NCBI GenBank assembly: GCA_023489485.1
Contig: JAMDCU010000131.1
Location: 24,862 to 88,861, forward strand
Direction of reading: 5' to 3'
Origin: Chloroflexota bacterium
GTDB taxonomy: Bacteria; Chloroflexota; Anaerolineae; UBA4142
DNA: 64,000 bases
This document shows, piece after piece, positions 23,498-63,011 of this stretch. How positions within the stretch are numbered: the first letter of the stretch is position 1; each line of letters opens with the position of its first letter. The notes below the pieces were generated by a model. That model saw only the letters and a program-made list of their open reading frames with translations. It was not told the DNA's origin and made no database searches. The position numbers were made by a program, and so were the translations under genes.

Positions 23498-23498
23498 C

Positions 23499-39640: not shown

Positions 39641-42600
39641 GCTTCTCCTCCTGTGGCTTTGCCTTGGTCGCACACGGAGGTGAACGCACAATAGTTGCAG
39701 GCGCCGTAGGTGGGCGTCGCCGCGCACGGGGTTGAGGACATGCTGTTCAGGGTACTGGCAATCGCGTGGGGCATTTGCTTTTCGAGTGCGGAGATGGGCA
39801 GCTCGCCGCGTCGGTAATCGAGCTTACCCTTCGTGACTTGGATTGTCCGGCAAGATTCGGCAGTGTAGCTGCCATTATCCTTCTCTACGATCGAGCCGAT
39901 GTTCATATAGTGGAGGGCGCGGGGTGCACCCTGAATGCGTCGGACGCCAGCCATGAGCGCGAGTGCGTACAGCGGCAGCTGATAATCGCTTGGCCGCTTA
40001 TCCCCCTCGGGCAGGAATTTCTGCATCTGGGCATTGAGCGCATACTTGCCGGACGAGCCGGTCTTGTAGTCGATCACTTCGTAGAAGGTGCCCGCCGCGG
40101 TCTTAATCTGATCGATGCGATCAATCCGACCGGCAATCGGCAGCCCCTCGATCTCAAATCGGAAGGGGACTTCAAGAAGAATGGGGCGGCGGACTTCGGC
40201 ATCGGGGAGGCCACCGCTCTCAAATTCGGCCCAGGCCGCGAGCGCGTCTTGTGCCCACAGGTGCACGGCTCGGCGCTGGAGATCCGGCCCGAACCCGACA
40301 CTCCATTCGGCACTTGGGGTGTAGTGACCTCCTCCCGGCAGATCCGTCGCTTGACCTGTCCACGCCGCATCGAGGGCCTTTTGTGCGCGCTCCTTCAGTC
40401 TCGGGGCATCCCCGATCCAGGGCGCTTGTTTACCGCGCGACAGATCGACCTCCCGGCACGTGCCATCTCCCAATGCGGCGCACAAGACCTCGTGTATCAG
40501 CGAGCCGCGCCGCGGCGTATCCTCTTCCTCGGTTTCGATGTTCAGAACATGCGCCAGAAAGAATTGCAGGGGACAGGTCAAGTACATCCGGATCTGCGTG
40601 GCGGAGAAGGTGTGATTGTTCAGGACTTTCGCGGGCTCGGGTGCAGAGCCAGAATGGCGGGGAGGTCCCCCCACCGATAGCGGAGCAAACTCTGAAGCCT
40701 TGCTCCAGAAGACCGGATGGGTAAGCTGAATTTGCCCATCTTTGTCGATCTCGCCCTCGTCAGCGAGCATTCGTTCGAAAAAGGGCGACGGGAGTTGGGC
40801 CTCGCCTCCCGCTGTAAACTGGCTGACCGACACCTGAAGATGTTCGGTGCCGCGGCTGAGCAAGACAGCGAGCTTGCGTGCCTCCCGTTCGATCCACGCG
40901 GCGTGATCCTTCAGAGCGGGCAGAACGACGCGTCGCCCATCGGCGAACAATGCCGGCAGTTCTTTCTCCGAGATGAGCTGCAAAGGCGTGTTCTGGATTG
41001 GGCAAGCGTTTTCGGACAAGCCGACGACAAAGGCGCGACGGGCGTGGCTTCCATTCGCGTGCAGGCTATCGAGGAATTGGATCTCCTCGGGACGCGTTTC
41101 GGTTTGGGTAAGCTCATCCGCTAGACCATCGAGGAGGTCGATCCACTCCTCAAACGGCGTATTGACGGAGCGTGCGGTCCCTTCCAAATCCGAGATCGCG
41201 ACAAGCCAGTTGGAAAATGTGCGCGCCCACTCGTCGCGCTGAGCGCGTCCGAAAGCGGAATTGTCCCACGCCCACGCGATACCGCCGAGATCGCGTATCA
41301 ACTGGAAAAGCTGCGGTCTCAGAGGTGATTCCTTATTCAACTTACCGAGTGCCTCGCGGACGCGTCCCAAGCAGGCGGTGGTCGCTTCCGGCGCTACGAG
41401 CGATGGCATTTCCGTGCCCTCGAGCTCAAGAATGCTCTTTTCATGTTCCTTCGCGGCGCGCTCCAAAGCCGCGCGGTCGATCGGATCGATTGCCACATAA
41501 GGCAGGGCCAATAACTCGGAGTCGATTTCAGCGTCGGCGCCTTGTGCGAGCCATTGGAGGGCAAGGATGCCCGCATAAATGAGCGGGTTGTGCCGCGCGG
41601 GAGGTGGTTGCGGAGAGACGAGTCCATAACGCGCTAACACGCGTCGTGCAAAGGGGAGCAATCCAGCATCTGCAGCAACGATGGCAATCTCGCTCGGTTT
41701 CAGGGCGCGGTCCCGAGCCAGTTGATCGGCAACTGCCCGCGCCACAAGCTCCGCTTCGTCTTCGACGGCAGAGGCGCCGGCTGCCAGCATAATGGGAGAA
41801 GCTATCGGCTGCCTCGCACCCGGCATCTGTATCACGCGACCGATGAGGGACGTGATAGCGGGATTCAAGTCGGGCGCTGGTCGGTCGAGTGTTTCTACCT
41901 GCTCACAACTCTGCAAGAACTCCTGAACATGTCTCAATTCCGGAGAAGCGGGGTTTTCCTGGAACCAGGCGGTTCCGGTGAAACGAGTGTCGGGACCGCA
42001 CAGCCGCTCGATCAAGGCCAACTGGTCGGGGCGGGCTTGGTGCAGATCATCCACCATGACAACGGGGAAGCGATTATGTACGCCTCGCGCAATGCCCTCT
42101 TCCGCAAGGAGATCGAGGCAGCGCAAGCTCGATTCCTGAAAGGTGAGCACCCGATGCTGCTCGCACAGCTCAATGTAGTGGGCGTAGACGCGGGCGAGTT
42201 CGTGCTCGCTCAACTCGCCGGGAGTTAGAGTGAATCGGCGTCTGTTTTGCGAGATCCAGTCCACCACTCGCGTCAGCTCACCGACAGCTCCTGGCGCTTC
42301 GTGGAACTCGCGCCACAATGCTCCTCCGACATCCGCCCATGCACGGGCGATGATGAGAGCCCGCGCCGCCGGACTGATTTCCTCAAGCGGAGTGTCGAGC
42401 CCCACAGTGTCCACGTATTCGGTGAGCAGGGTGAGCTGAAAATGCTGAAGGGTCGTTACGTTGGGCAGGAATTGCGCCACCTCGTGGAGCTTGTGGCGCA
42501 GGGCTTGCGCGTTGGCCGAAAAGAAGGAAAGAAGGAGAATTCTCTGCGGAGAAACGTGCTCCTTTCGAACGCAGTGAATATAGTCCCTAAGCAGGCGTGA

Positions 42601-42666
42601 GGACTTGCCCGTCAGGGGAGTGCCTGTAAGAACACGACGAAAGGCAGGAGAAGAAGGAGTCGACAT
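39637..42666 (-). CDS. AddB/AdnA-like helicase-nuclease subunit (degenerate motor, RecB-type nuclease, Fe-S-type cysteines)
   Basis: Walker A 'GTPLTGKSS' but no DEYQD box ('VVMVDDLHQ'). Nuclease 'IDRIDQI...VIDYKTG'. 'LTCPLQFF' plus the terminal 'CNYCAFTSVC' (C-x2-C-x5-C) resembles the AddB iron staple. Confidence 0.8.
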   Translation of the reverse strand: MSTPSSPAFRRVLTGTPLTGKSSRLLRDYIHCVRKEHVSPQRILLLSFFSANAQALRHKLHEVAQFLPNVTTLQHFQLTLLTEYVDTVGLDTPLEEISPAARALIIARAWADVGGALWREFHEAPGAVGELTRVVDWISQNRRRFTLTPGELSEHELARVYAHYIELCEQHRVLTFQESSLRCLDLLAEEGIARGVHNRFPVVMVDDLHQARPDQLALIERLCGPDTRFTGTAWFQENPASPELRHVQEFLQSCEQVETLDRPAPDLNPAITSLIGRVIQMPGARQPIASPIMLAAGASAVEDEAELVARAVADQLARDRALKPSEIAIVAADAGLLPFARRVLARYGLVSPQPPPARHNPLIYAGILALQWLAQGADAEIDSELLALPYVAIDPIDRAALERAAKEHEKSILELEGTEMPSLVAPEATTACLGRVREALGKLNKESPLRPQLFQLIRDLGGIAWAWDNSAFGRAQRDEWARTFSNWLVAISDLEGTARSVNTPFEEWIDLLDGLADELTQTETRPEEIQFLDSLHANGSHARRAFVVGLSENACPIQNTPLQLISEKELPALFADGRRVVLPALKDHAAWIEREARKLAVLLSRGTEHLQVSVSQFTAGGEAQLPSPFFERMLADEGEIDKDGQIQLTHPVFWSKASEFAPLSVGGPPRHSGSAPEPAKVLNNHTFSATQIRMYLTCPLQFFLAHVLNIETEEEDTPRRGSLIHEVLCAALGDGTCREVDLSRGKQAPWIGDAPRLKERAQKALDAAWTGQATDLPGGGHYTPSAEWSVGFGPDLQRRAVHLWAQDALAAWAEFESGGLPDAEVRRPILLEVPFRFEIEGLPIAGRIDRIDQIKTAAGTFYEVIDYKTGSSGKYALNAQMQKFLPEGDKRPSDYQLPLYALALMAGVRRIQGAPRALHYMNIGSIVEKDNGSYTAESCRTIQVTKGKLDYRRGELPISALEKQMPHAIASTLNSMSSTPCAATPTYGACNYCAFTSVCDQGKATGGEA

Positions 42667-50371: not shown

Positions 50372-51625
50372 ATGGAAACGATGATGAACACGATCGGTGA
50401 ACTCGCTCTCGTTGGCGCAGGCCCCGTGGTAGTAGTCGCTCCGGAGGAAATGGAAGCGGCCGGGCAAAAAGAAAACGCCCTGGAGTTCGCGGCTCCAAAG
50501 GCGTCTTTCGTGGCTTTCGCCACAGATCAACCTACAACTGAATATACGACGGAAGCGGATGTTTGTCAAGGGATTTGGATCCCGACTTTCGATGAAATCG
50601 AGGCGATTATCGCCGGCGCTGCTCAAAGGCGCATCGAAAGCGCCTTCAGCGAGGTGCAGGACACCCGCGCACGGATCGAACGGGAGCGCATGGCACGAGA
50701 AATGGCGCTGCAGACGTGTCAGAGCCGCTTGAACGAGACAAAAACGGCGCTCGCGAAGCTCGGCGATGAGCGCACGTCAATGGAACAGCGGGCGAGGGCT
50801 TTTCTGGGCGGCGAGGAACTGAAAACGCTGCTGGAAAAGATCCATATCGCATTCAATGCCCGCCAGTTGCAGATGGAGACAACGCTCTCGGCAACCGAAG
50901 CTGAGGTCGCTGAATCGACAACTGAGGCACAGGCGGCGAGCGTAAGTGATTCTCTCGAACTGCAACTCCTCGAGCAGGAATTGGAACGGCTCGAATTGGC
51001 AGCCCCCGATGTGGCAGAGAACGTGCGCCTGGTCGCCACCGCGGTGGACAACCTCAGTGCAGCCAGGCAGGCGATTGAGGAAGGACTGTTGCGGGATGCC
51101 GTCGTGCTAATCGAACAGGCGAAAGCCGGCCAAGCTGATCCCTCCCTGGTGGCGGAAGTTGAGCAGGTTCTGGCGGAAGCTCAGCAGGCGAAGTTGGCAC
51201 GGCATCTGATTGCCCGCATCACCGCCAACCCGGACCAGCCGGGTGCCCTGAGGCGCATTCACCAGCTTATGGAGGAAGCACAGCACGCAGGCGTGGAAGA
51301 CAAGGTGAAAGTGTTTGCCGATCGCGCTCTTGAGACCGCACGCGATGCTGCGAATGCTCGGTTCGCCCAGGCACGACCGATTGCTGACCATTTGGTGAGC
51401 GAAGGATTTGTTCCAGTCGTGGGAGACGGACGGATTGAAGCGTGGATGCCGGTCGCACGCAATGGACACGGTGAAGTCTGGTCGCTGGATCGCATTCTGA
51501 CCTTGCGTGGACGAGAGGAATGGATCACCGAGACGCCGCGCAACCCGATCACGCGCAGGGAATTGCCGCTGCGTGTACGCCATTCCCGGTGGTACCGCGC
51601 GGCGGTCGAGAATCCCGCCGGCTAA
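50372..51625 (+). CDS. Hypothetical coiled-coil protein
   Basis: 417-aa ORF with long Ala/Glu/Gln-rich helical segments and no catalytic motif. Followed by a strong hairpin. Confidence 0.55.
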   Translation: METMMNTIGELALVGAGPVVVVAPEEMEAAGQKENALEFAAPKASFVAFATDQPTTEYTTEADVCQGIWIPTFDEIEAIIAGAAQRRIESAFSEVQDTRARIERERMAREMALQTCQSRLNETKTALAKLGDERTSMEQRARAFLGGEELKTLLEKIHIAFNARQLQMETTLSATEAEVAESTTEAQAASVSDSLELQLLEQELERLELAAPDVAENVRLVATAVDNLSAARQAIEEGLLRDAVVLIEQAKAGQADPSLVAEVEQVLAEAQQAKLARHLIARITANPDQPGALRRIHQLMEEAQHAGVEDKVKVFADRALETARDAANARFAQARPIADHLVSEGFVPVVGDGRIEAWMPVARNGHGEVWSLDRILTLRGREEWITETPRNPITRRELPLRVRHSRWYRAAVENPAG

Positions 51626-51729: not shown

Positions 51730-54243
51730 GTGATCGCTCTTCACGAACTGAATGCTGAACAGCGGGCCGTCGTCAAGCGCGTGAACGGACCGCTCCTGGT
51801 GCTCGCGGGTGCCGGCAGCGGTAAGACGCGGACGCTCACCTACCGCATCGCGCACATTCTCGATCAAGGGCTCACGTCGCCCCACGGCATCCTGGCGATC
51901 ACATTCACTCGCAAAGCGGCGTGGGAGATGCGCCGGCGCTTGGAGCAACTGGTCGGTGTCGGTGCCGCGGACATCACCGCCGTCACCTTCCATAGCCTCG
52001 GATACAAGATCCTGTGCGCCGAGAGCGGGGCGCTGGGCTTCAAAGCGGATGCGCTCTCGATCTCGGATGGCTCTGAGGCAAGGCGGCTGCTCAAGCGCGC
52101 CATGAAAGAAACCGACATGGACAGCACCCGCTGGGATGTGGAGCAGGTCGCCGCGATCATCGAACGCGCAAAGGACAATCTGTATGCGCCGGACGCCTTC
52201 ATCCAGGTCAAAGGCGATTTCTTTCAAGAGTCGATGGCGAAGGCGTACACCCGCTATCAACAGCTCCTGAAAGAGAACAACGCCGTCGACTACGCCGACC
52301 TGGTGCGATTGAGTGTGCAACTGCTGCAGCAGAATCCACAAACACTGGCCTTCTATCAGCAGTTGTTTCGCTATGTCTCAGTGGATGAATTCCAGGACAC
52401 CAGTTTTGGACAGTATCAGCTCATCCGCCTGCTCGTCTGGAGTCATCGCAATCTCTGCTGCGTCGGCTCGCCGGTGCAAGCCATCTACTCTTGGCGCGGC
52501 GCGGATATCGCTAACATGCTGCATCGCTTTCGGGAAGATTTCCCCAAGGCGCCGAGAGTCGTGTTACATGCCAACTATCGCTGTACCCAAAGGATTCTCA
52601 ATGCGGCGCAGCAAGTGGTCAGTGACCTACCGTACCGCGAAGAGCTGACGACCGAGAACGCGGAAGGCGATCCGATCGCAATCGCCGCGTCTCACACCGA
52701 CTGGGACGAGTCCAACTACATCGCGGCCGAGATCGAGCGGTTGGCACAGGACGCACACTACCGATTCGAGGACTGCGCCATCCTCTTTCGCACGCGTGCT
52801 CAAGGAAGACTCTTCGAGCAGGTGCTCATGCACCGCGGCCTGCCGTACACCCTGGTCGGCGACTTTCGGTTCTTTGAACGACGCGAGATCAAGGACCTGC
52901 TCGCCTACCTGCGTCTGGTGCACGATATCTTCGACGCGGGCGCTTTGCAGCGCATCATCAACCGACCGCCTCGCGGGCTAGGGACTGCCGCACTTGCCAA
53001 GTTGCAGCGGGGCGCGCCTGAACTGACATCTGATGTATTGACCGGTCTTCACGACCGTGATGACTTGCCTGCGAAGGTGAAGCAGGCAGCGCTCGCGTTT
53101 GCTTCCCTGCTGTTTGATGATCTGGCCATGGCGGCGAAGGACAAGACACTCCCTGCGCTGATCGACCACATCCTTGTCCGCTCCGGTTACTTGGAGTGGG
53201 TCAAGGGGGATGCAGAAGCCAAACAGCGGCTGGCGAACCTCGCACAGTTCCGCGTGCTCGCACAGCGTTACGAGGGAGTGTCGGATGCACTCGCCTCCTT
53301 CCTCGGCGACATCGCGACGATGGGCGACCAGGATATCGGCATCCCGATGGAGACGCGGGGCGTTACGCTAGCGACGATCCACGCCGTCAAGGGACTCGAG
53401 TTTCCGATAGTTTTCGTGGCTGGCCTAGAGGAAGGAATCTTCCCGCACGCCAAGGCGCTAAGGCAGCCGAATGGGATCGAAGAGGAACAACGGCTGGCGT
53501 ATGTCGGGATGACACGCGCCATGATCAAACTTTATCTGTCGTATGCCAGAACGAGACAGAACGGAGCGGGTCCCATTGAATGCACCCCCAGCCGTTTTAT
53601 CGCACGATTGCCAAAGGAGATCGTCGAGCGAGTCTCCGCCTCATCGCCTGCGACGGTTGCCTCGGCTCCAGTTGTGGATAAACCCATTGAAACTGTGGAA
53701 AACGAACCCCCTTTCACCGATGAATCGGAAGAAGCGGTAATCCCCATCGGCGAAGAGGCGGTCCAAGTCGCAGAGCCTACAGCGGAAACGGCTGAGGTGG
53801 CGGCGGACGCGGAATCCGATCTGGACGGTTGGCTCGCGGAGGGCCAGGATTCGTGGAACGAATATGAGGCTGAACGAGCGCAGGAAATCGAAGCGTGGGT
53901 GCTCTCAGAACTGGAGGGAGATAATACCGACCTCGAAGCGGAGGCGCTCGCTAATGGCGAGATCGAGATCCCGGAGGAGATGGAAGCTCTCATGGCTGAG
54001 GCGCAGAGCGACCTTCTGGACCATGAGATGGCGCTCGCCGAAATCGCTTATGAGCGACAAGAGGCTGCCAAGGGACAAGCGTCTGTGGCTCCGCTAGAAA
54101 GGATGGAGACCGAAGAAGACGAACCGCTGGATTACGACGCTCTGCTTAGTGAGTACGCCGAGGAAATCGCCGAGCACGAGCGGTGGAAAGAACGTACCGG
54201 CATGAATCAACAAAAGAAGCGAAGCTATGCTCTCGCCGCATAG
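51730..54243 (+). CDS. UvrD/PcrA/Rep-family DNA helicase with a long acidic C-terminal tail
   Basis: 'AGAGSGKTRTL', 'DEFQDTS', 'GSPVQAIYSWRGA', 'NYRCT', 'HAVKGLEFP' and 'YVGMTRA'. The last ~200 aa are Glu/Asp/Ala-rich. GTG start. Confidence 0.92.
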   Translation: MIALHELNAEQRAVVKRVNGPLLVLAGAGSGKTRTLTYRIAHILDQGLTSPHGILAITFTRKAAWEMRRRLEQLVGVGAADITAVTFHSLGYKILCAESGALGFKADALSISDGSEARRLLKRAMKETDMDSTRWDVEQVAAIIERAKDNLYAPDAFIQVKGDFFQESMAKAYTRYQQLLKENNAVDYADLVRLSVQLLQQNPQTLAFYQQLFRYVSVDEFQDTSFGQYQLIRLLVWSHRNLCCVGSPVQAIYSWRGADIANMLHRFREDFPKAPRVVLHANYRCTQRILNAAQQVVSDLPYREELTTENAEGDPIAIAASHTDWDESNYIAAEIERLAQDAHYRFEDCAILFRTRAQGRLFEQVLMHRGLPYTLVGDFRFFERREIKDLLAYLRLVHDIFDAGALQRIINRPPRGLGTAALAKLQRGAPELTSDVLTGLHDRDDLPAKVKQAALAFASLLFDDLAMAAKDKTLPALIDHILVRSGYLEWVKGDAEAKQRLANLAQFRVLAQRYEGVSDALASFLGDIATMGDQDIGIPMETRGVTLATIHAVKGLEFPIVFVAGLEEGIFPHAKALRQPNGIEEEQRLAYVGMTRAMIKLYLSYARTRQNGAGPIECTPSRFIARLPKEIVERVSASSPATVASAPVVDKPIETVENEPPFTDESEEAVIPIGEEAVQVAEPTAETAEVAADAESDLDGWLAEGQDSWNEYEAERAQEIEAWVLSELEGDNTDLEAEALANGEIEIPEEMEALMAEAQSDLLDHEMALAEIAYERQEAAKGQASVAPLERMETEEDEPLDYDALLSEYAEEIAEHERWKERTGMNQQKKRSYALAA

Positions 54244-55333
54244 AGCCTCGAACGAGAGAAGGGAACTGAGCCGCGAAGAAATCGACGCCATCCGTGCGAG
54301 GCACCCCATCGAACAGGTGGTGTCGCAGTACGCCGACCTGCATCCTTCGAGTCGGTTGCTGCAAGCTCGCTGTCCCCTGCCAGGCCATGACGATACCGGC
54401 CCGAGCTTTACCGTCTACGTTCAATCTCAATCGTTCTACTGCTTCGGATGCAATCGCGGCGGGGACGTGTTCAAGTTCATCCAGTTGATGGAACATGTGG
54501 GCTTTCGTGATGCTGTCGACAAGCTAGAAGGAAGCAGCATCGTCGTTGAGCCGACCCGGACGGCACGGCAGAAAGAGCAGGCAAATCCGCGATCGAGGAG
54601 AGTGCTAGACGAAGATGCGTGTCATCTGCTGACCGCGGCAGCAGAAGTGTACCACGCCTCGCTGCTGCTGAATGATCGGATGCTCAACTATGTAATCGGT
54701 CGTGGGATCACGATGGAGATCATCAAACGATTTCGCCTGGGGTACGCGATAGGAACGAACCTGGCAAAGTACTTTCGCTTCCGCGGCTGGGACTTGCAGC
54801 TTGGGAAAGACCTGGGACTGGTGGGAGATCACGGCGAGTTCTTTCGGGAGCGCATCATCATCCCCGGATGGCAACACGGAAATGCGATCTATCTCGTGGG
54901 ACGAAAGACGAAGGGCTACCAGCAGGTCAAATATCTCGGCCTGCCGGGCGCGGCCAAGCCGCTGTATGGGCTCGAAGGCGTGATTAGGTTACGCGAGGTG
55001 TTCATCGTCGAGGGCTGCTTCGATATGCTCACGCTCGTTCAATGGGGCTATCCCGCCGTCGCACTGCTCGGCTCTCATCTCAAAGCCGAATGGGAGCAGG
55101 CATTGGCTTTCGCCGCGCGAATCTTTGTCGTGACGGATTCCGACGAAGCGGGACGCGTGTCGGCAAAGACCATCGCCGAGACGTTCGGAGCTCGCTCGAT
55201 TATCGTCCCGCCACTTCCCAACGCCAAGGATGTGAACGAGCTGGCCTTGCAGCCAAAAGGAAGGGAGCACTTTGCCCAACTGGTGAGCCAGGCGCGGCAC
55301 GCAAGAGAAGGTGAGAGAGAAAGGAGAGTATGA
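54227..55333 (+). CDS. DnaG-like primase (CHC2 zinc finger plus Toprim)
   Basis: 'CPLPGHDDTGPSFTVYVQSQSFYCFGCNRGGDVFKF' is a CHC2 finger. 'FIVEGCFDMLTL' and 'VVTDSDEAG' are Toprim motifs. Overlaps the helicase by 17 nt. Confidence 0.9.
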   Translation: MLSPHRASNERRELSREEIDAIRARHPIEQVVSQYADLHPSSRLLQARCPLPGHDDTGPSFTVYVQSQSFYCFGCNRGGDVFKFIQLMEHVGFRDAVDKLEGSSIVVEPTRTARQKEQANPRSRRVLDEDACHLLTAAAEVYHASLLLNDRMLNYVIGRGITMEIIKRFRLGYAIGTNLAKYFRFRGWDLQLGKDLGLVGDHGEFFRERIIIPGWQHGNAIYLVGRKTKGYQQVKYLGLPGAAKPLYGLEGVIRLREVFIVEGCFDMLTLVQWGYPAVALLGSHLKAEWEQALAFAARIFVVTDSDEAGRVSAKTIAETFGARSIIVPPLPNAKDVNELALQPKGREHFAQLVSQARHAREGERERRV

Positions 55334-56079
55334 CACAGACATCAACTGAAGAGGAAGGCTCAGTGAGTATGGTCGCGGAAGACGTGCAGCCAGCAAATCC
55401 GTTGGTAGAAGTGGCGGAATCAGATTCCGAAGGTGCGGCTGAAGCGCCCGATCAAGAAACCGAGCAAGAAAAACAAGACGAGGCCGACACCGACGATACA
55501 GACGAGGTGGAGGCAGGGGCGAACGATGCCGCGCCGAGCGAAGAAACTCCGGTCGCCCCGACGTCATCTTCGACCGGCGCAAAGGCTGCTGCACCGAATC
55601 AACCCGAGGATGACGACCCCCGCTCGGACATCGAGAAACAGCCGTATGAGTTCGATCGCAGCACCGTCCAGATCGCGATTCAACTCCTTCCGAATGATGG
55701 AGATGCGAACGGTCACCCCGTGCTGATCGGGGTGCGAACACACCTGGATGCGCCGATTGTTCGAATGATGAGAGCAAACGAGCTGGGCGATCTCCCGCCT
55801 GCCATTACGACGCTCGTGGAACAACTCAAGGGCGAACTGCCAGCCCGCGAGCAAGCCGCCCGAGAACGCTGGGAGAAAGAAAAAGAAACCCGCGCCCGTA
55901 GGCATACAAAGGCGTCGCCGGCGAAAGAGGCAAAAGCGGCCAAAGGGGCGAAACCGGCAAAACCCAAGACGGTGGGGGCAGCCGCCGCACCCGCGCCGAG
56001 TGTTCTGACGGATGAGCAAAGAGCGAATGCAGTCGGCCAGGTCGCCGTGGCAAACAAACAGCAGATGGCGCTCTTTTAG
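55330..56079 (+). CDS. Acidic-N / basic-C low-complexity protein ending in a clamp-binding-like motif (PRTRC-E-like position)
   Basis: ATGA overlap with the primase stop. The extreme C-terminus is '...NKQQMALF*', which matches the Q-[LM]-x-L-F beta-clamp-binding consensus. Confidence 0.6.
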   Translation: MTQTSTEEEGSVSMVAEDVQPANPLVEVAESDSEGAAEAPDQETEQEKQDEADTDDTDEVEAGANDAAPSEETPVAPTSSSTGAKAAAPNQPEDDDPRSDIEKQPYEFDRSTVQIAIQLLPNDGDANGHPVLIGVRTHLDAPIVRMMRANELGDLPPAITTLVEQLKGELPAREQAARERWEKEKETRARRHTKASPAKEAKAAKGAKPAKPKTVGAAAAPAPSVLTDEQRANAVGQVAVANKQQMALF

Positions 56080-56090
56080 GAGGTGACGCG

Positions 56091-56519
56091 ATGATTCAAG
56101 TGACCATAGATGGCCAATGTTTTCCGCTCCCGGAGGATGTGGGCGGGAAGGATGACTTGCTGCGGGCGGCGCTGGCTCCCTTTGTTCCATGGATCGCCAA
56201 TGCTCGCATTGAGCGCAAAGAAGAAGCCGGGAACACCGTCGTTAGCGTGATCAAGCGCGCCGACACGAAAGGGAGTACAAGCGATGTTGTCGCTGCGCTG
56301 GTCGCCGCGCCTCAGAAGATGAATCCCGCGATCGCGTTGTGGCTCAAGCTCCAGGACGAAGGTAAGCTCGATGATCCGGGCGCCATGGTCGAATGGCAGC
56401 CCGCGATTGCGGAGGCAATTGAAGCCGGCGAACGCGAGATCGGCGAAGTCCGCGCCGCCATGCAGTACCTGGCGGAATGTGCTCCTATTGCCGCCTCGCG
56501 TATCCCCCTTAGCTTCTAG
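56091..56519 (+). CDS. Ubiquitin-like (PRTRC-C-like) domain with an 81-aa C-terminal extension
   Basis: Strong RBS (GGAGGTGA). The first 61 aa, 'MIQVTIDGQCFPLPEDV...TVVSVIKRADTKG', resemble small beta-grasp PRTRC protein C ending in TKG (Gly codon 56271-56273). A helical extension follows. Confidence 0.5.
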   Translation: MIQVTIDGQCFPLPEDVGGKDDLLRAALAPFVPWIANARIERKEEAGNTVVSVIKRADTKGSTSDVVAALVAAPQKMNPAIALWLKLQDEGKLDDPGAMVEWQPAIAEAIEAGEREIGEVRAAMQYLAECAPIAASRIPLSF

Positions 56520-56522
56520 CCC

Positions 56523-57320
56523 ATGAAAGCGGCTCTCGTACAAACGCCGCCGTCCGATGCCTCGCCGCCGCTCTCCGCCACAAATGTCCTCTCGCAGCTG
56601 AAACGAATTCGGTTCCTCTCTGCGGGAGAAGCTCTCCAGCGGCTGAACACCCTCTCGGAAACCAGTCGCATTCTCTGGCTCTACCGCAAGTATTTCCCGC
56701 GAGAGTATGCCCGCTCGACAGCCAGCGCCCTGGTTCCCGTCACTCTCGATGGCGACTGCGGCTATTCCGAACGAGAAAAAGAGTTTCTCGAACTGGTCGA
56801 CAAGCGCCTCTTTCCCATGCCCGATCTCTTCTTTGACGAGACGCGCTTCGAGATGATCCCCATCTACCCGCAGGGCGTCGATTGGGATGAAGACCTGGAA
56901 TACCTCCGCCTGTCCCTCCGGGCGGGGATGGAACTCCTCCAGGAAGAAGAGTCTCCCTTTTGGGAACAGTGGCTGCCGGCGAACCTCCGACCCAAGCCAG
57001 GTGAACACGACTGGAAGAACTTCGAGAAGGCGTGCCGGCGAGTCGGAGGCTTTGCCACTCGCCTGCCCCTCCTCATCGACCTGGTCTCGCACAACACGGG
57101 GACGCTGTGGCTCGATGCCTACTGGGAGTCGGGAGTGGAGGGGTTCGCGTGGTCAGAGGAGGACGTGCAACTGCTCGCCAAGGAATGGCGCGCGGCCCAG
57201 CGGTTCATGAACAAGCTCGATCCCCTGCTCGACCGGATCGAAAAGCATCCGCGCTATTGGCTCACCCGACTGGTCAAGCTGTGGAATGCCTCAATCAAAG
57301 CCGAAGAGAGGAAGAACTGA
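56523..57320 (+). CDS. Hypothetical protein of the Ubl cassette
   Basis: 265-aa ORF, 3 nt after the previous stop and directly abutting the next ATG. No motif recognised. Confidence 0.55.
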   Translation: MKAALVQTPPSDASPPLSATNVLSQLKRIRFLSAGEALQRLNTLSETSRILWLYRKYFPREYARSTASALVPVTLDGDCGYSEREKEFLELVDKRLFPMPDLFFDETRFEMIPIYPQGVDWDEDLEYLRLSLRAGMELLQEEESPFWEQWLPANLRPKPGEHDWKNFEKACRRVGGFATRLPLLIDLVSHNTGTLWLDAYWESGVEGFAWSEEDVQLLAKEWRAAQRFMNKLDPLLDRIEKHPRYWLTRLVKLWNASIKAEERKN

Positions 57321-58019
57321 ATGATCTATCCTCCCGTTGATTTGTCCCGTATGACCCCAATGGCCGCTGACGAGACGGCGTCGCTGATGCTCATCACCGG
57401 GGACCAGTACCTGTTCCGCTTTCGCGACAAGGGAGGCACTGTCGCCTACAAATTCCTGTCGCCCGCCTCTGTACGCGCCGCCTTTGCGCATGAGACGATC
57501 GACACCCAATGGCTCCCGGTCAATGTGCGGCGCTGGGGCATTGGGAAACACGGCGAATGGCTGCTGGTCACCCACCCGCCGCAGGTGTACGAGTTCACAT
57601 TCGCCAGCCTGCACGGGAATGAAACCGTCACCTTCCGGGTGCCAATGCCGGCACTCGCCTTCTTAGGCTACGGTCAGCGCTATCACCTCTGGGCTTTCAA
57701 CGATCGCGAGCTCAGTGCCAACACTCCGCTCTTTGCCGCGCCGCTACCTAATGTGGATGGAAACGGTTCCATCTGCTTCGGGACGAACATCATGCCGCAA
57801 GCATCGGCGCGGACGATAGGTGACGCGTGGAACCTCTTCCTCGCCAGCCCTTTTTCGAACCACTCCGTCAACGGCAAGTCAAAGGCATTTCCAGAGGACG
57901 TGCGGGGTCAACTGGAGAAACTCGCTCAATCCGGGCGGAGACGCTATCCGCTCCGCGATCTCGTGCCGCTCCGCACCACGGCGAACCAAGCGATCGAAAA
58001 CGCTCTGAGAGGAGTCTAG
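57321..58019 (+). CDS. E2 (UBC)-like protein (PRTRC-B-like)
   Basis: 'APLPNVDGNGSICFGTN' parallels the E2 'HPN...G-x-IC-L-D' active-site loop with a candidate catalytic Cys. Sits between the Ubl and JAB genes. Confidence 0.6.
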   Translation: MIYPPVDLSRMTPMAADETASLMLITGDQYLFRFRDKGGTVAYKFLSPASVRAAFAHETIDTQWLPVNVRRWGIGKHGEWLLVTHPPQVYEFTFASLHGNETVTFRVPMPALAFLGYGQRYHLWAFNDRELSANTPLFAAPLPNVDGNGSICFGTNIMPQASARTIGDAWNLFLASPFSNHSVNGKSKAFPEDVRGQLEKLAQSGRRRYPLRDLVPLRTTANQAIENALRGV

Positions 58020-58021
58020 CA

Positions 58022-58690
58022 ATGGCCGAGCTGTCACTCGTGAACTACCGCGTCGCGTATGCCGGGGTTCCTCTTTCGCCCATAGAGGCTAGTCTGTTCG
58101 AATACCTTCTCGCCGCCAATGGAGTCTATGTGCGGGGAGAGCGCCGGGAGTTGGCTGCTCTGCTGCCTGTAGCTTCGTGCGAGATACGTGGGCTCGCAGA
58201 GCTTGAGCCCAAGACCGAGCTGCGTGTCCCGCGGGTTCCGCAAGAACAAGTGCAATGGATGCTGGAGAAAGCCCGGAGAGTGCAAGATGATACCGGGCGC
58301 CCAACCGAGATCATCTTTCACCTCTCGGTGGATGATACAGGCATCTGGAACGTAGAAACGCCGGAACAACTACAGGGACCGGCCCGAGCCAGGCCGCTCG
58401 ACGATTCGGGTGACTCCTCCTATGCCCGCGCGTTCGTGGAAGTGCATTCGCATGTCAATATTTCCGCCCAGTTCTCAGGCACGGATGATGGAGACGAGAT
58501 CGGGTTTCGGGTGTATGCGATCTTGGGACGCATTTTCAACGCTCCGGAAATGCGCGTTCGCGTCGGCCTCTACGGCTACCGCTGGGAGATACCGGCGACG
58601 GAGATATTTGATCTACCGCCGGAGGTCACCGACGCCAAGGATGCGGAGAACACAGAAATGCTCTGGGAAAGGAAGGAAGATGCAAGTTGA
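58022..58690 (+). CDS. JAB/MPN (JAMM) metallopeptidase (PRTRC-A-like)
   Basis: 'FVEVHSHVNISAQFSGTDD' is the H-x-H-x7-S-x2-D JAMM motif. The ATG at 58022 is 2 nt after the E2-like stop. The track ORF extends upstream to 57827. Confidence 0.8.
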   Translation: MAELSLVNYRVAYAGVPLSPIEASLFEYLLAANGVYVRGERRELAALLPVASCEIRGLAELEPKTELRVPRVPQEQVQWMLEKARRVQDDTGRPTEIIFHLSVDDTGIWNVETPEQLQGPARARPLDDSGDSSYARAFVEVHSHVNISAQFSGTDDGDEIGFRVYAILGRIFNAPEMRVRVGLYGYRWEIPATEIFDLPPEVTDAKDAENTEMLWERKEDAS

Positions 58691-58907
58691 TTATGAGTTT
58701 GGGCTGATTACCTTATCCAAGGACGAGCATGCCCGCTTTGACTCAGACGCGGCGTATCGACACAAGGTCCTGCAAAAAGCCCACGACCTGAGCGATGAAA
58801 GCGAAGGGCGCACCGTCTCCATCTACGCGGACGATGCGGAGAAGCAGATCGCCCATGTGAGCTGCGAGACGTTCGATGAAGAGAATCGCGAAACCTTCCT
58901 CGACTGA
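58680..58907 (+). CDS. Small acidic protein of the Ubl cassette
   Basis: The ATG at 58680 overlaps the JAB stop by 11 nt. 75 aa. Ends 4 nt before the E1 ATG. Confidence 0.4.
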   Translation: MQVDYEFGLITLSKDEHARFDSDAAYRHKVLQKAHDLSDESEGRTVSIYADDAEKQIAHVSCETFDEENRETFLD

Positions 58908-58911
58908 CCAC

Positions 58912-59898
58912 ATGAGTTGCAGCCGCACCGGCAGAGAGACCCTGGACCTCTCGCATCTGACAGCAGTGCCGCTGAAACTCGTCGCACTTGGACCGCGAGG
59001 TACCTTGCGGCTCTACCTCATCGGCTGCGGCGGGACCGGCTCATGGCTCGCCCCGCATGTCATCCGCCTGGCCCGGTTCCTGCGTGAAGCCCATGCAATG
59101 AACGTGCAACTGACATTCATCGACGCGGATGTCGTCGAGTCCAAGAACATCTACCGCCAGAACTTCTGCCAAGCGGAGATCGGCGCCCACAAGGCCGAGA
59201 CGCTCGCACTGCGCTTGGGACCGGCTTGGGGTGTCGAAATCGGTGTCCAGGTCGCCCGCTTCGATCCGAAAATGGTGGAGCACCAATACGGCGATATCGG
59301 GCTTTTGATCGGTTGTGTGGACAATGCTGGAGCGCGCAAGACGATCGCCGATACACTCGATCACACTGGGCACGGATGGAACAATGGTGCTTATTCAAAC
59401 GATGCCCCACCTCTGCCCCAGCTATGGTGGCTTGACGCTGGCAACGGCGAGAACACGGGTCAAGTGACTTTCGGATCCACAAGTTCCACCAAAATCCTGC
59501 GCTACGGCTTTCCTCACCACCCCGATTCCACCTACTGCGTCCACCTGCCAGCCCCACATCTGCAACATCCCGACTTGCTTGAGACGCGCCCCGATGAAAC
59601 CAAAACATCGGAAGCACCGTCCAATATCTCTTGTGCCCAGATGGTCTGGGCAGGTGCCCAGTCGCCTTCGATTAACTCGATGGTGGCGAGCATCGCCGCC
59701 TCATATCTCTGGCGGATATTCACGGACAAACGAGGGCTGACGATGTTTGCCACCTACTGCAACCTGGAGGCGATGAGCATTCGCTCTCGGTACATCACGC
59801 CCGAGTCTGTCGGCGCCGTTCTCGACAAGCCGGCAGCTTGGTTCGAGCAGCGCAGGAATGCGAACCGAGCGATGCGCCCGGTTGAACAGGCTGCTTGA
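58912..59898 (+). CDS. ThiF/MoeB/E1-like adenylyltransferase
   Basis: 'LYLIGCGGTGSWL' (GxGxxG), 'FIDADVVESKNIYRQNF' and 'IGCVDNAGARK' are E1/ThiF nucleotide-binding motifs. The track ORF starts at 58876. Confidence 0.85.
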   Translation: MSCSRTGRETLDLSHLTAVPLKLVALGPRGTLRLYLIGCGGTGSWLAPHVIRLARFLREAHAMNVQLTFIDADVVESKNIYRQNFCQAEIGAHKAETLALRLGPAWGVEIGVQVARFDPKMVEHQYGDIGLLIGCVDNAGARKTIADTLDHTGHGWNNGAYSNDAPPLPQLWWLDAGNGENTGQVTFGSTSSTKILRYGFPHHPDSTYCVHLPAPHLQHPDLLETRPDETKTSEAPSNISCAQMVWAGAQSPSINSMVASIAASYLWRIFTDKRGLTMFATYCNLEAMSIRSRYITPESVGAVLDKPAAWFEQRRNANRAMRPVEQAA

Positions 59899-59940
59899 GG
59901 ATGTGGATCGAGGCGGAAGAAATTAGAGGAAGGTTTTGAT

Positions 59941-60360
59941 ATGCCCAGACAAGTCATTAGCCTGATGGTCTATCTGAACGACCGAGACGTGGAGAAACAC
60001 GGTGGATTGTGCCAGGCACGCGACAAGATCACTGCATGGCTGGATGCCAACATTCTCCAGACTCAAAACGTGGGCGCCTATGAGCGAAGCGAGGTCAAAA
60101 CGCTCGAAGGCGAGGACCTCGATTTCCTGCGCGAGTTGATATGGTTCAGCGTCAACTACCATCGCGAAACGGAGAGCGAGATCGTGGCTGAGCATCTCGA
60201 CCTGGGCGAACGCTGCGAGTGGTGCGGCAATTTCCACGTTGAACGCCACCCCGTCTCCCAAGCGATTCTCCGCCATCGCTTTGTGGACCACACTGCTGAA
60301 ATCCGAGCCAAGGAGCAAGAACTCCTTGAGCAGGAAAAAGTGCTCAAAGCCGTTCCCTAA
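59941..60360 (+). CDS. Hypothetical protein
   Basis: 139-aa ORF on the same strand as its neighbours. Contains 'CEWCGNFH'. No family recognised. Confidence 0.45.
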   Translation: MPRQVISLMVYLNDRDVEKHGGLCQARDKITAWLDANILQTQNVGAYERSEVKTLEGEDLDFLRELIWFSVNYHRETESEIVAEHLDLGERCEWCGNFHVERHPVSQAILRHRFVDHTAEIRAKEQELLEQEKVLKAVP

Positions 60361-60379
60361 CTCGAATTGGAGGAATACC

Positions 60380-60640
60380 ATGAGATTTCTGACCGGGAAA
60401 GACTACCCGGAACTGTGCGAAACCTGCCGCCACATGGTGGATATGGTGGTCGATCTGGTCGCAGAGGGACCCGACACCGACGACGAGGAGGCCCCAATCA
60501 ATTTCGTCTACGATCACCATCTGTTCTGCGGAGGCGATCACTGCGCGGTCAAGGAGCAAGCGCGTCTTGAGACGAGGCAGCAGAAATGGATGGAAACCGG
60601 GGCGCACCCCGCCCATTCTACGGAAATCGCTGTACCCTGA
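60380..60640 (+). CDS. Hypothetical small Cys-containing protein
   Basis: GGAGG RBS at 60370-60374 and ATG at 60380. 86 aa with 'CETCRH' and 'FCGGDHC'. Confidence 0.4.
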   Translation: MRFLTGKDYPELCETCRHMVDMVVDLVAEGPDTDDEEAPINFVYDHHLFCGGDHCAVKEQARLETRQQKWMETGAHPAHSTEIAVP

Positions 60641-60720
60641 ACCGAGAGTTGTCCATTTTCGAGTTTTCTTGAGGGTCGGGCCAAGTTATGCTATATTGAT
60701 GTGGGAAAAGGACGTGACAG

Positions 60721-60966
60721 ATGCAACGCTTTAAGAGAAACACAAATCAGAGGTCCAAGTCTGCAGTGACTCGTGGGCCGGCGATAGCCAACCGACGCGC
60801 GGATGCTCACCGTCAACTGGGGGATCTGCTGAGCCTCGTCCACGCTCGCAAGCCCACGATGGATGAGAAAGAGGCTGAGGATCTCATCCTGCGAGAGACG
60901 ATGGCAGTCAAGCGAGCGCGAGCGAGAAAGAGGCTTCCGCCCGAGCGCCGTGGGCAAGGCAATTAG
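60721..60966 (+). CDS. Hypothetical small basic protein
   Basis: 81-aa Arg/Lys-rich ORF preceded by a promoter-like TTGAGG-17-TATATT (60669-60697). Confidence 0.3.
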   Translation: MQRFKRNTNQRSKSAVTRGPAIANRRADAHRQLGDLLSLVHARKPTMDEKEAEDLILRETMAVKRARARKRLPPERRGQGN

Positions 60967-60990
60967 TATTCAGGCTCTTGTTAATTCCAA

Positions 60991-61019
60991 TTGACAATTG
61001 CATTGCGATGCATTACAAT
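60991..61019 (+). promoter_or_regulatory. Sigma70-like promoter with an overlapping repeated operator for the RHH-PIN operon
   Basis: TTGACA (60991-60996), a 17-nt spacer and TACAAT (61014-61019). TGCATTGCG is repeated at 60999-61007 and 61019-61027, with an ATGCAT palindrome at 61008-61013. RBS GGAGG at 61027-61031. Confidence 0.55.
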
Positions 61020-61036
61020 GCATTGCGGAGGTCGGT

Positions 61037-61285
61037 ATGGGAGAGCAATTGACCGTCCGCCTGCCAGCGGACTTGGCAGACCAATTGGATCGCACGGCTA
61101 AGCGGCTGCGCCGCCACCGGTCGGAGGTCGTGCGTCTGGCACTAGAGGAATACCTGATGGCACCACCGGAGGAGCGCCCCATCGAGCGCGTGCGTGACCT
61201 ACTTGGTAAAGTCGAAAGTGGGATCCCGGATCTGGGCCAGCATCATCGCGAGCACCTGGTGAAACGACTCCGCCATGCCCGCTGA
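61037..61285 (+). CDS. vapB: Ribbon-helix-helix (CopG/VapB-type) antitoxin
   Basis: 'EQLTVRLPADLADQLDRTAKRLRRHRSEVVRLALEEYL' is a classic RHH. Overlaps the PIN gene by 11 nt. Confidence 0.8.
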   Translation: MGEQLTVRLPADLADQLDRTAKRLRRHRSEVVRLALEEYLMAPPEERPIERVRDLLGKVESGIPDLGQHHREHLVKRLRHAR

Positions 61286-61718
61286 CCCGACCAGACCCAA
61301 GCCCTCGGTGCTACTGCTCGATACCGGTGCTTTTGTCGCCCTCGTGGACCGCAGCGAGACGCGCCATCGCGATTGTGTCTCGGTACTGGAAGAGTGGTCG
61401 GGACCGCTCGTGACGACCGAGGCGGTTCTAACCGAGACGCTCTATCTGGTCGGTCCCACATGGGCAGCGCAGCAGACATGTTTTGAGTTTTTCCGCCGTG
61501 GCGCCCTGCAGTTGGTCCCCTCATCGCCGGCGAGCCTGCTGCGCGTGGCCGAACTCATGAACAAATACCAAGATTTGCCCATGGATTATGCGGACGGAAC
61601 CCTGGTCGCGCTGGGCGAAGAACTCGCGACAGATCAGGTCTTCACGCTCGACCGTCGAGGCTTTGGCGTGTATCGACTCCATGGGAAGAAACCATTTCGA
61701 ATTCTTCCTGGTCCATGA
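61275..61718 (+). CDS. vapC: PIN-domain toxin (VapC-type)
   Basis: 'VLLLDTGAFVALVD', 'TTEAVLTE' and 'DYADGTLV' supply the acidic PIN residues in the expected order. 147 aa. Confidence 0.85.
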   Translation: MPADPTRPKPSVLLLDTGAFVALVDRSETRHRDCVSVLEEWSGPLVTTEAVLTETLYLVGPTWAAQQTCFEFFRRGALQLVPSSPASLLRVAELMNKYQDLPMDYADGTLVALGEELATDQVFTLDRRGFGVYRLHGKKPFRILPGP

Positions 61719-61814
61719 TGCGTACCCTTGGGTGAACGACACCATTAACCGAATTCAGTCTTTTAGGGCGAGAGGAAATCCTCCTCTCGCCTTTTCAATT
61801 TCCATAGGAGGCAC

Positions 61815-63011
61815 ATGCAGATCTCTTGTCTTCAGGAACACCTGGCCAAAGGACTGGCCGTCACGAGCCGAGCGGTTTCGAACAAATCACCGCTCCCGAT
61901 CCTCACCCACGTCCTCTTGGATGCACGCAACTCCAAGGGAGGTGAGAGCAAGGTGCGGCTAGCGGCGACCAACCTCGAAGTTGGCATCAGCTGCTGGGTA
62001 GCGGCTCAGATTGAAGCGCCGGGCGCCATCGCCGTTCCGGCGCGCTTGATGGCGGATTTCGTCAACGCGCTCCCAACGGAGCGGGTGGGTCTTGCCCTGA
62101 ATGCCAAGACCCAGACCCTGGGTCTCAAGTGCGGCTATCAGAATGCCAACGTGAAAGGGATCGACGCACAAGAGTTTCCCGCAATGAATGCGGTCTGGCA
62201 GCCCGCCTTAAGAGCCGCGTTACAGGCGAAGGGGCTGCGCGAGCTCCTCGATCGGGTCGCCTTTGCAGCAGCGACAGAAGATTCGCGGCCAATCCTGACC
62301 GGGGTCTTCGCCCAGTTCAAGGACAAGCGGCTGACGCTCGCAGGTGCGGATGGCTTTCGGCTTTCGGTGCAGCACGCGGCCCTCGTCGACTCGGTCGAAC
62401 CATTCCAGGTCGTCATCCCGGCCCGGGCTCTGCAGGAAGTCATGCGGGTGTGCGGGGAGCAGTCCGAACCGGTGGAGATCACCGTCAACGAAAACCGAAC
62501 GCAGGTGAGAATTACGCTGACCGGCATTGAGGTGACAGCCCAGCTCATCGATGGAGCCTTCCCCGATTTCAATCGCATCGTTCCCAAGGAACACACGAGC
62601 CGCGCCGTCGTGACGACGAGCGAGCTCACGTCCGCCATCCGAATGGCATGCGTCTTTGTCGAGAAGAACGGGAATCACAATGGAATTCGCCTAGAAGCCG
62701 ATTGCGCGCACGGCCGCGTCATTGTGCTCGGTGCGAATGCCGAACGCGGCGATGCTGTTGGCGAAGTGGATGCCGCGATTGAAGGCGAGGCTTTCCACGT
62801 GTCTCTCCAAGCCCCCTACCTCTTGCAGCTCCTGGAGCGCTTTACATCCCCGCAGCTCGCCATCGAATTCTTGAAGAGTGAACCCCATCCGGCTCCGGTC
62901 GTCGTGAGAGTCGTCGGAGACGAAGACTTTCTCCATGTGATGATGCCGCTCGAAGAGAAACGCGCGGCTCCCAAAGAGAAGAAAGAGAAAGCGGCTGACA
63001 AGCCCAAGTGA
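61815..63011 (+). CDS. dnaN: DNA polymerase III beta sliding clamp homologue with a Lys/Glu-rich C-terminal tail
   Basis: 'MQISCLQEHLAKGLAVTSRAVSNKSPLPILTHVLLDA', 'RPILTGV' and 'IDGAFPDFNRIVP' are colinear with DnaN. About 17 extra residues, 'EEKRAAPKEKKEKAADKPK', follow. Confidence 0.9.
   Translation: MQISCLQEHLAKGLAVTSRAVSNKSPLPILTHVLLDARNSKGGESKVRLAATNLEVGISCWVAAQIEAPGAIAVPARLMADFVNALPTERVGLALNAKTQTLGLKCGYQNANVKGIDAQEFPAMNAVWQPALRAALQAKGLRELLDRVAFAAATEDSRPILTGVFAQFKDKRLTLAGADGFRLSVQHAALVDSVEPFQVVIPARALQEVMRVCGEQSEPVEITVNENRTQVRITLTGIEVTAQLIDGAFPDFNRIVPKEHTSRAVVTTSELTSAIRMACVFVEKNGNHNGIRLEADCAHGRVIVLGANAERGDAVGEVDAAIEGEAFHVSLQAPYLLQLLERFTSPQLAIEFLKSEPHPAPVVVRVVGDEDFLHVMMPLEEKRAAPKEKKEKAADKPK

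Follow-up and report, generated by a model that had tools for sequence, protein, structure and literature searches.

Why would a small protein, encoded directly upstream of a candidate gene for a ubiquitin-like protein (Ubl), end in a peptide that resembles the docking peptides of the bacterial sliding clamp? This question is raised by a 64,000-nucleotide (nt) stretch of contig JAMDCU010000131.1 from a Chloroflexota bacterium (positions 24,862 to 88,861; the whole stretch is called the window below). The protein, of 249 amino acids (aa), is encoded on the plus strand at 55330..56079 by the first gene of a cassette that also encodes candidates for a Ubl, an E2, a JAB-type peptidase and an E1, and it is called the E-slot protein here after its place in that cassette. 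Downstream of the cassette lies dnaN, the gene for a sliding clamp. The best explanation of this arrangement, to which we give a probability of roughly 0.6 on the strength of sequence comparison and structure prediction, is that the E-slot protein would serve as a clamp-docked adaptor of the Ubl cassette.

The E-slot protein and its C-terminal pentapeptide

The open reading frame (ORF) of the E-slot protein can be divided into four parts. Residues 1-95 (55330..55614) make up an acidic, variable region with 28 Asp and Glu against 2 Lys and Arg, which is predicted to be disordered, with predicted local distance difference test (pLDDT) scores below 50, and is weakly conserved among homologues (alignments A1 and A3). 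This region is followed by a conserved core domain, residues 96-180 (55615..55869), with the pattern ...QPYEFDxxTVQIAIQLLPxDGDAxG..VGVRTHLDAPI...LPP...ELPAREQAA, and by a basic linker rich in Lys, Ala and Pro, residues 181-244 (55870..56061), with 14 Lys and Arg and 17 Ala in residues 181-243. The last part is the pentapeptide QMALF, residues 245-249 (56062..56076), a putative beta-clamp-binding motif by its conservation in the family and by the published consensus; the translation of 55330-56079 ends in ...VAVANKQQMALF. The initial annotation had described the protein as having an acidic N-terminal half, a Lys/Ala-rich C-terminal region and a QMALF end, and the composition counts agree with that description. 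In an AlphaFold 2 (AF2) model from a 27-sequence alignment, three strands and one long helix are predicted at about residues 110-195 with a pLDDT of about 80, and both flanks of this ordered core are predicted to be disordered. The start of the linker extends the core helix; from about residue 195 onward the linker is of low confidence or disordered, and its sequence diverges between clades. Behind this low-pLDDT linker, at the extreme C-terminus, the pentapeptide takes up an exposed position.

Among the 567 stop-to-stop frames that span 60 codons or more in the whole window, only that of the E-slot protein has the end Q[LMIVP]x[LMIF][FL]. A first search for homologues returned 60 proteins from Chloroflexi metagenome bins, and all of the complete ones end in Q-[QR]-[MLIP]-[AGT]-[LMF]-F while the preceding 30 residues diverge. 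With a wider profile, which included a protein from a Nostoc PCC 7120 plasmid, 130 close and mid-distance homologues were obtained, 117 of which carry Q[LMIVP]x[LMIF][FL] as their C-terminal end (QLSLF in 40, QMGLF in 21, QMTLF in 16, QLAMF in 12 and QMALF in 8). When 1.84 billion cluster representatives were searched exhaustively with a profile, 486 proteins reached E<=1e-3, and the best 150 of these added 141 new ones; the motif is terminal in 45 of the 141 and no more than 12 residues from the end in 64, the remainder being mostly fragments or proteins with QxSLF somewhat further in.

When the 130 homologues and these 141 best-listed new representatives are taken together, Q-[L/M]-[S/G/A/T]-L-F is found in the last 35 residues of 238 of the 271 proteins and is exactly C-terminal in 164. 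Position 2 is Leu in 92 and Met in 73 of the 238; position 3 is Ser in 96, Gly in 42 and Ala or Thr in 33 each; position 4 is Leu in 208; and position 5 is Phe in 230. The motif was found in none of 120 DnaN sequences examined as controls. In a 96-sequence alignment with a mean column identity of 12%, the motif Gln (Q245) is the sole invariant column and F249 is kept at 90% or more, and the motif is still present in homologues that are only about 22% identical and whose flanking tails have diverged. Homologues on Nostocales plasmids end in QLSLF. Conservation of the terminal Q-x-x-L-F, checked in this manner, is therefore strongly positive.

The consensus of the E-slot family equals the published clamp-binding consensus, QL[S/D]LF or QxxLF, in which positions 1, 4 and 5 weigh most (PMC12309361); the fit of QMALF to this consensus at the extreme C-terminus was the original observation. 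Both QLSLF and QMGLF are measured ligands of DnaN in B. subtilis, QMGLF being a weak one at ~78 µM (PMC12309361), and QLSLF is the form used by TrfA of plasmid RK2 (PMC8034659). A five-residue pattern can arise by chance in one protein, and the QMALF end might then be a resemblance without function. However, since the pattern is found in a single window frame out of 567 and is conserved family-wide, to about 22% identity and next to a divergent tail, it is not a product of chance, and we regard this alternative as refuted. Judged by its sequence, the C-terminal peptide probably binds the cleft of a DnaN.

The remainder of the protein resembles nothing that we could find. Invariant or near-invariant columns of the core are Y106, T112, P121, H138, D140, P142 and P171 (alignment A1), and in one clade of homologues the core is duplicated in tandem. 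Foldseek comparison of the core with PDB and BFVD returned nothing significant, the E-slot protein has no match in Pfam or NCBIfam, an NCBIfam scan of 96 family members gave noise only, and the precomputed Pfam annotation is empty for 130 of 130 homologues. Viral contigs scanned with alignment A1 contained no relatives. Members of the family are encoded on conjugative plasmids and on integrative elements, in Chloroflexota and Cyanobacteria. With at least 486 clusters at 50% identity and neither a Pfam nor an NCBIfam model, it is a new protein family, and on balance the E-slot proteins would seem to be a large un-annotated family of adaptors, encoded by the first gene of cassettes of the E2_D/JAB/ThiF ('PRTRC-like') type.

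Core and motif are also found fused behind an N6-methyltransferase and behind a 1,597-aa methyltransferase-helicase (P0243 and P0267), and the core stands behind a ParB in a record that stops before the tail (P0188). Because of these fusions, the core and motif together suggest a portable module for tethering DNA enzymes to the clamp. In the acidic region, at window positions 55500-55614 (about residues 58-95), there is a patch that reads EE[IL][ED]xGAxDA in the Chloroflexi clade and IEEIDTA in the clade with the duplicated core; this acidic-hydrophobic patch may be a second docking peptide.

The sliding clamp of the element

The dnaN gene of the window (61815..63011, plus strand) sits 5.7 kb downstream of the E-slot gene. 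Its 398-aa product scores 239.1 bits against TIGR00663, for which the cutoff is 137.65, matches PF00712, PF02767 and PF02768, and aligns with clamps in PDB at a best E of 1.8e-42. Directly after MMPL, which lines the cleft, begins a Lys/Glu-rich C-terminal extension (residues 380-398; 62952..63008, plus strand), and the protein ends in ...MMPLEEKRAAPKEKKEKAADKPK. With a score above the cutoff and all three clamp domains, the gene encodes the full-length DnaN homologue with a Lys/Glu-rich tail that had initially been reported. This element-type DnaN belongs to a clade of proteins of 383-439 aa, with identities of 51-95%, that travels with the cassette. All members (the window DnaN and P0272-P0346) extend past the conserved ...HVMMPL; their tails vary, being Lys/Glu-rich only in the closest relatives and about 80 aa long in the DnaN of the Nostoc plasmid. 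Chloroflexi DnaNs of 376-377 aa, which end in ...MPMHVK, are 45-48% identical to the window DnaN, and one of them (P0372) lies among housekeeping genes on a 417-kb contig and was taken as the host type. The separate clade, with its C-terminal extensions and its association with the cassette, supports the claim that the element has a DnaN of its own, which would probably be a second copy beside that of the host.

Residues at the positions equivalent to E. coli R152, L155, G174, R176, L177, P242, R246, V360, M362 and P363, which we take from the structural literature to form the cleft, are conserved in element and host types. Around the rim of subsite II, at the E. coli-equivalent positions 320, 344 and 364-366, there are systematic differences between the two. 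Since both clefts are conserved, the motif could bind either clamp, and on these sequences a specificity for one clamp type is possible.

Linkage between dnaN and the cassette was seen in 15 of the 19 informative loci of the Chloroflexi clade, where dnaN lies in the available flank, within 10 kb (the window, L001, L004, L006/L016, L019, L021, L022, L032, L034, L036, L041, L045, L051, L052 and L054; L006 and L016 cover one contig and were counted once). At L017, L030, L037 and L044 it was not present in the 2.7-3.9 kb available downstream. The dnaN of L021, L022 and L054 is divergent (22-30% identity) and lies upstream instead of downstream, which argues against simple inherited synteny. Among plasmids, dnaN is carried by at least 13 of the 27 listed cyanobacterial and Chloroflexi E2_D plasmids, compared with 244 of 72,556 plasmids overall (0.34%). 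On pCC7120beta of Nostoc sp. PCC 7120 (L023, NC_003240.1 62861-71105), the genes beside the cassette are dnaN, dnaX, a gene for a 605-aa exonuclease/polymerase, holA and a gene for an AAA ATPase, a set that by its annotation amounts to a clamp and clamp loader of the plasmid's own. In the integrated relative L006 (15525-16750) the element dnaN is called as two ORFs, of 171 and 274 aa; this split is either a frameshift or an assembly error and, if real, would make the element copy dispensable.

The Ubl cassette and a proposed role of the E-slot protein

The E-slot gene is tightly packed between its neighbours. Its ATG overlaps the stop codon of a primase gene (gtATGA) and is preceded by an AGGAG ribosome-binding site, and the next gene, which has the ribosome-binding site GGAGGTGA, starts 11 nt after the E-slot stop codon. 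This next gene encodes the 142-aa Ubl-slot protein (56091..56519), which begins with a module of about 61 aa, closed by an invariant K-G (residues 60-61, alignment A7), and continues as a helical extension. Further along the same strand follow genes for the 265-aa F-slot protein (56523..57320), which has no family match and is conserved in all related cassettes; an E2-like protein of the Prok-E2_D family (57321..58019; PF14460 at E=7.1e-26, and 67.5 bits against PRTRC_B, TIGR03737, below the cutoff of 131.45); a JAB/MPN peptidase-like protein (58022..58690; PF14464 at E=8.2e-5, and 37.9 bits against PRTRC_A, TIGR03735, below the cutoff of 101.8); and an E1-like ThiF adenylyltransferase (58876..59898; PF00899 at E=1.6e-13, and 122.2 bits against PRTRC_ThiF, TIGR03736, below the cutoff of 144.75). 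A gene for a 139-aa protein, also on the plus strand, and a pair encoding a ribbon-helix-helix antitoxin and a PIN (VapC-like) toxin (60998..61718, plus strand) fill the space between the cassette and dnaN; in related loci, toxin-antitoxin pairs are inserted at varying places. Among the other proteins of the module (helicase, primase, F, E2, JAB, E1 and a 417-aa protein), none has a clamp-binding-like motif.

In every locus examined, the E-slot gene stands directly upstream of the Ubl-slot gene, with F, E2_D, JAB and ThiF coming after. The examined set comprised the window, about 30 loci of the Chloroflexi clade, two of the duplicated-core clade, and plasmids of Nostoc, Chroococcidiopsis and Pseudanabaena. 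On a Chlorohelix plasmid the cassette is cut by the start of the record and by an IS21 element, and no E-slot gene is found there.

The Ubl-slot protein gave no match to a hidden Markov model and no fold match, and its alignment against PRTRC_C by hhalign is co-linear but insignificant (E=0.02, probability 2.4%). A single-sequence AF2 model has a pLDDT of 57 and a beta-beta-alpha-beta-beta order that is compatible with a beta-grasp fold. The label 'Ubl' for this 142-aa protein is consequently one of low confidence, drawn only from its cassette position, this low-confidence model and the invariant K-G. Its extension, of about 80 aa, is helical and has the conserved end R-I-P-L-G-F, which appears as RIPLSF in the window and as VVPVGF in the duplicated-core clade (about 30 related loci; L015:12704-13167). 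On the Pseudanabaena plasmid two ORFs take the place of one: that of the Ubl ends exactly at ...GPKG, and a second, ending in ...IRGF, encodes the extension. The RIPLGF peptide resembles a hexapeptide clamp motif of the QLVLGL type without its Gln.

This second conserved peptide has a bearing on what the QMALF end may be. That the E-slot peptide binds a clamp is a prediction from sequence, and it could in principle act as a degron or as a signal for type IV secretion, or serve to dock another partner such as ParB, E1 or E2. The element is conjugative, and the Ubl-slot protein has in RIPLGF a conserved hydrophobic C-terminal peptide of its own that lies outside the clamp consensus, so C-terminal docking peptides may be a general trait of the cassette. 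However, conservation in the E-slot family is specific to the clamp motif, with an invariant Gln at position 1, Leu or Met at 2, a small residue at 3, Leu at 4 and Phe at 5, and to our knowledge neither degrons nor secretion signals require the Gln. Such functions would also leave the enrichment of dnaN near these genes unexplained, and we consider them quite improbable.

If the E-slot protein is a clamp-docked adaptor, its C-terminal Q-[L/M]-x-L-F peptide, carried on a flexible basic linker, would insert into the hydrophobic cleft that lies where domains II and III of DnaN meet. The clamp could be the element's own DnaN, in which the cleft is intact, or that of the host, in which the cleft is nearly the same. 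Docking would then place the E-slot protein on clamp-loaded DNA, that is, on primed or replicating DNA of the element. The constant gene order suggests that the E-slot gene is always co-transcribed with the Ubl, F, E2, JAB and E1 genes, and from this order come two possible roles for the rest of the protein: the core or the acidic N-terminus might bring the Ubl conjugation enzymes to the clamp, or the E-slot protein might itself be a clamp-bound substrate, modified through its Lys-rich linker. We put this last step forward tentatively, with somewhat more doubt than belief. Because the clamp-binding peptide is conserved and the element usually carries a clamp gene, the cassette probably acts at replicating DNA.

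The initial annotation had proposed that the protein tethers either the Ubl enzymes or the helicase-primase to the clamp, and gene order bears on the choice. A coupler of the primosome to the clamp, working in the manner of TrfA and independently of the Ubl enzymes, would reduce the adjacency of the cassette to operon packing. In line with such a role, the E-slot start codon overlaps the primase stop codon in the window, the E-slot gene directly follows a primase-polymerase gene on the Nostoc and Chroococcidiopsis plasmids, a clamp loader and a polymerase are encoded nearby in some relatives, and the QLSLF of TrfA provides a plasmid precedent (PMC8034659). In many relatives, however, among them L001, L004 and numerous metagenome loci, 2-5 kb of inserted genes (toxin-antitoxin and others) part the primase from the E-slot gene while the Ubl gene stays about 10 nt away, and L006, L025 and L026 have the E-slot gene and the Ubl cassette with no primase near them. 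The link to the helicase-primase therefore appears weaker than that to the Ubl genes, and a primosome coupler seems to us unlikely.

Several points weigh against a clamp-docked adaptor of the Ubl cassette. The motif is equally kept where no dnaN is found within 10-14 kb, as in the duplicated-core clade and on two cyanobacterial plasmids (L025, L026, L014 and L015), and hence it need not be specific for an element-encoded clamp. A Pseudomonas aeruginosa megaplasmid (L029, NZ_CP096823.1) carries a canonical PRTRC cassette with a motif-less E protein and a dnaN 3.6 kb downstream, so that part of the dnaN linkage may reflect a shared region of the plasmid backbone; dnaN and the cassette might do no more than share it. 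The canonical proteobacterial PRTRC_E proteins lack the motif, from which it follows that a clamp link is not general to all PRTRC systems. The form with Gly at position 3, QMGLF, is frequent in the Chloroflexi clade and binds weakly in B. subtilis (PMC12309361). In addition, the E-slot core has no recognisable fold or family in PDB, BFVD, Pfam or NCBIfam, and the connection with Ubl conjugation is one of guilt by association only.

The retention of the motif away from any element dnaN would also suit a protein directed against the clamp, i.e. an inhibitor or competitor that slows host replication or repair or excludes host clients from element DNA, for which the toxin SocB and the clamp inhibitors of phages are models. 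The near identity of host-type and element-type clefts fits this role, as do the conflict systems carried by the element, such as BREX and toxin-antitoxin pairs. On the other hand, possessing just one clamp-binding peptide, as this small protein does, is ordinary for clamp clients, the strict coupling to a six-gene Ubl cassette would go unexplained, and the fusions to ParB, methyltransferase and helicase point to the tethering of enzymes rather than to blocking; we hold an inhibitor to be very improbable.

Upstream of the E-slot gene, the helicase-primase part of the module runs on the plus strand. At its head is a conserved 417-aa protein (50372..51625) with no family match and a coiled-coil character judged by eye, orthologues of which, 53-61% identical, stand upstream of UvrD in L001, L004, L019, L034, L036, L041, L045 and L051. 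It is followed by a UvrD/PcrA-type helicase with an acidic C-terminal extension (51730..54243), assigned by family matches and kept upstream in relatives, and by the DnaG-like primase (54227..55333), with Zn_ribbon_DnaG, DNAG_N and Toprim domains. The helicase ends in ...KKRSYALAA (54229-54243), and YALAA is presumably the same as the last five residues of the SsrA degradation tag of E. coli; orthologues end in ...AAVA, ...ALA and ...LKVA, a weak pattern.

In the first part of the window, a conjugation module on the plus strand (636-13899) encodes PrgI, a VirB4-like ATPase, an M23 peptidase, a TrwB-type coupling protein, a Replic_Relax-like protein, ParB and a DnaB-like helicase. The ParB gene (11912-12943) does not adjoin the cassette; in relatives, ParB follows dnaN. 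On the minus strand, a stretch of lower GC content (0.51) encodes a TIR-domain response regulator next to a PAS/GAF histidine kinase (15712-19029), which may be a signalling or defence pair. Also on the minus strand is a complete BREX-like system (21464-36373) with BrxL, PglZ, a 1,580-aa PglX-like methylase, BrxC, BrxB and BrxA, adjoined by PLD-like and NOV_C proteins. An AddA/AddB-like helicase-nuclease pair (UvrD and PD-(D/E)XK; 36668-42666, minus strand) lies between this defence island and the replication/Ubl module. No tRNA gene occurs in the window. Because it contains conjugation genes along with other mobile-element and defence genes, and has no tRNA genes, the window is, by its gene content, part of a large conjugative element. 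The relative L006 abuts a large serine recombinase gene and housekeeping genes, and is therefore taken as an integrated element.

Comparison with PRTRC and other known systems

In canonical PRTRC cassettes the order of slots is E, C, F, B, A, ThiF, and the order in the window is the same (compared with L011, L028 and L029). PRTRC_E (TIGR03741) and the E-slot protein are both encoded directly upstream of the Ubl (PRTRC_C), and in build they are alike, each combining one small folded domain with a long low-complexity stretch of charged residues and ending in a short hydrophobic tip. PRTRC_E has these parts the other way round, the folded domain first and the acidic tail after it, and the four canonical proteins end in ...ASEF, ...AEQF, ...PEFGL and ...LLSLLG, none of which is Q-x-x-L-F (L011, L027, L028 and L029). 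These tips recall the C-terminal tips of single-stranded DNA-binding protein (SSB), and they may bind a different hub protein. TIGR03741 gave no match to the E-slot protein of the window at E<=10 and matched 0 of 96 family members at E<=1, and the 96-sequence E-slot alignment compared by hhalign with the PRTRC_E of pQBR55, a single sequence that limits the sensitivity, gave a probability of 0.3%. In canonical PRTRC, ParB is encoded next to protein E, whereas no ParB gene adjoins the E-slot gene in the window. The ThiF, B and A matches of the window all fall below the curated PRTRC cutoffs, placing the cassette as related but outside the curated families. From these comparisons, the E-slot protein is a positional analogue of PRTRC_E and not a member of its family.

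PRTRC-type cassettes have been catalogued on plasmids and on integrative and conjugative elements, and in the literature searched no function or molecular target has been assigned to them. We found no paper there that links a PRTRC or E2_D cassette to a clamp, and primase, clamp and ParB are not mentioned in this context by Iyer et al. 2006. Neither clamp-binding motifs nor PRTRC-type cassettes are new in themselves; what the searched literature does not contain is a conserved component of such a cassette with a clamp-binding motif, or the family to which it belongs. In one large branch of these cassettes, the product of the first gene carries a strictly conserved peptide of the clamp-binding type, which would be a first concrete handle on the cassette and points to the sliding clamp and to replicating element DNA as the place of action. 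Elements of this kind often bring a distinct DnaN of their own, and pCC7120beta brings a clamp loader as well. The same arrangement is found on pCC7120beta in Nostoc sp. PCC 7120, a cultured strain whose genome sequence is complete; its E-slot gene (NC_003240.1 52590-53072) encodes a protein with a perfect QLSLF, in the end ...PAPNNQLSLF.

The known clamp clients PolC (QLSLF), Pol IV (QLVLGL), Hda (QLSLPL), TrfA (QLSLF) and the transposases of insertion sequences share with the E-slot protein the short motif, the exposed terminus and the use by mobile elements. They are enzymes or initiators of known activity, whereas the E-slot protein is small, predicted to be mostly disordered, recognisable by its motif only, and encoded in a Ubl operon.

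In eukaryotes, ubiquitin and SUMO signalling at PCNA brings together PIP-box proteins such as PAF15, which bind by a peptide of the form Q-x-x-hydrophobic-aromatic, and Rad6-Rad18. The arrangement in the window is similar in outline, with a clamp, a short docking peptide on a disordered protein, and E1, E2 and deconjugase candidates. The components are not orthologous, and the likeness, to which the initial annotation had pointed, is a formal one. If the window held a bacterial counterpart, the E-slot protein would be an E3-like clamp-docking adaptor or the primary substrate. The targets of the Ubl would be the clamp, the Lys-rich linker of the adaptor or further proteins bound to the clamp on freshly primed DNA of the element, and the modification would control how conjugative elements replicate, become established or evade defence; the second cleft of the dimeric clamp might be filled by the RIPLGF end of the Ubl precursor. 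This is a speculative reading that we think unlikely. Should the Ubl link prove true, clamp-centred Ubl signalling would not be purely a eukaryotic invention.

Among bacterial systems, the CBASS Cap2/Cap3, Bil and Bub operons likewise combine genes for E1-like, E2-like, JAB-type peptidase and Ubl proteins on mobile DNA, and no clamp-binding component of these systems has been reported in the literature searched. The cassette in the window differs from them in having a Prok-E2_D protein and the additional E-slot and F-slot proteins, and in being linked to helicase, primase, dnaN and ParB genes instead of defence effectors.

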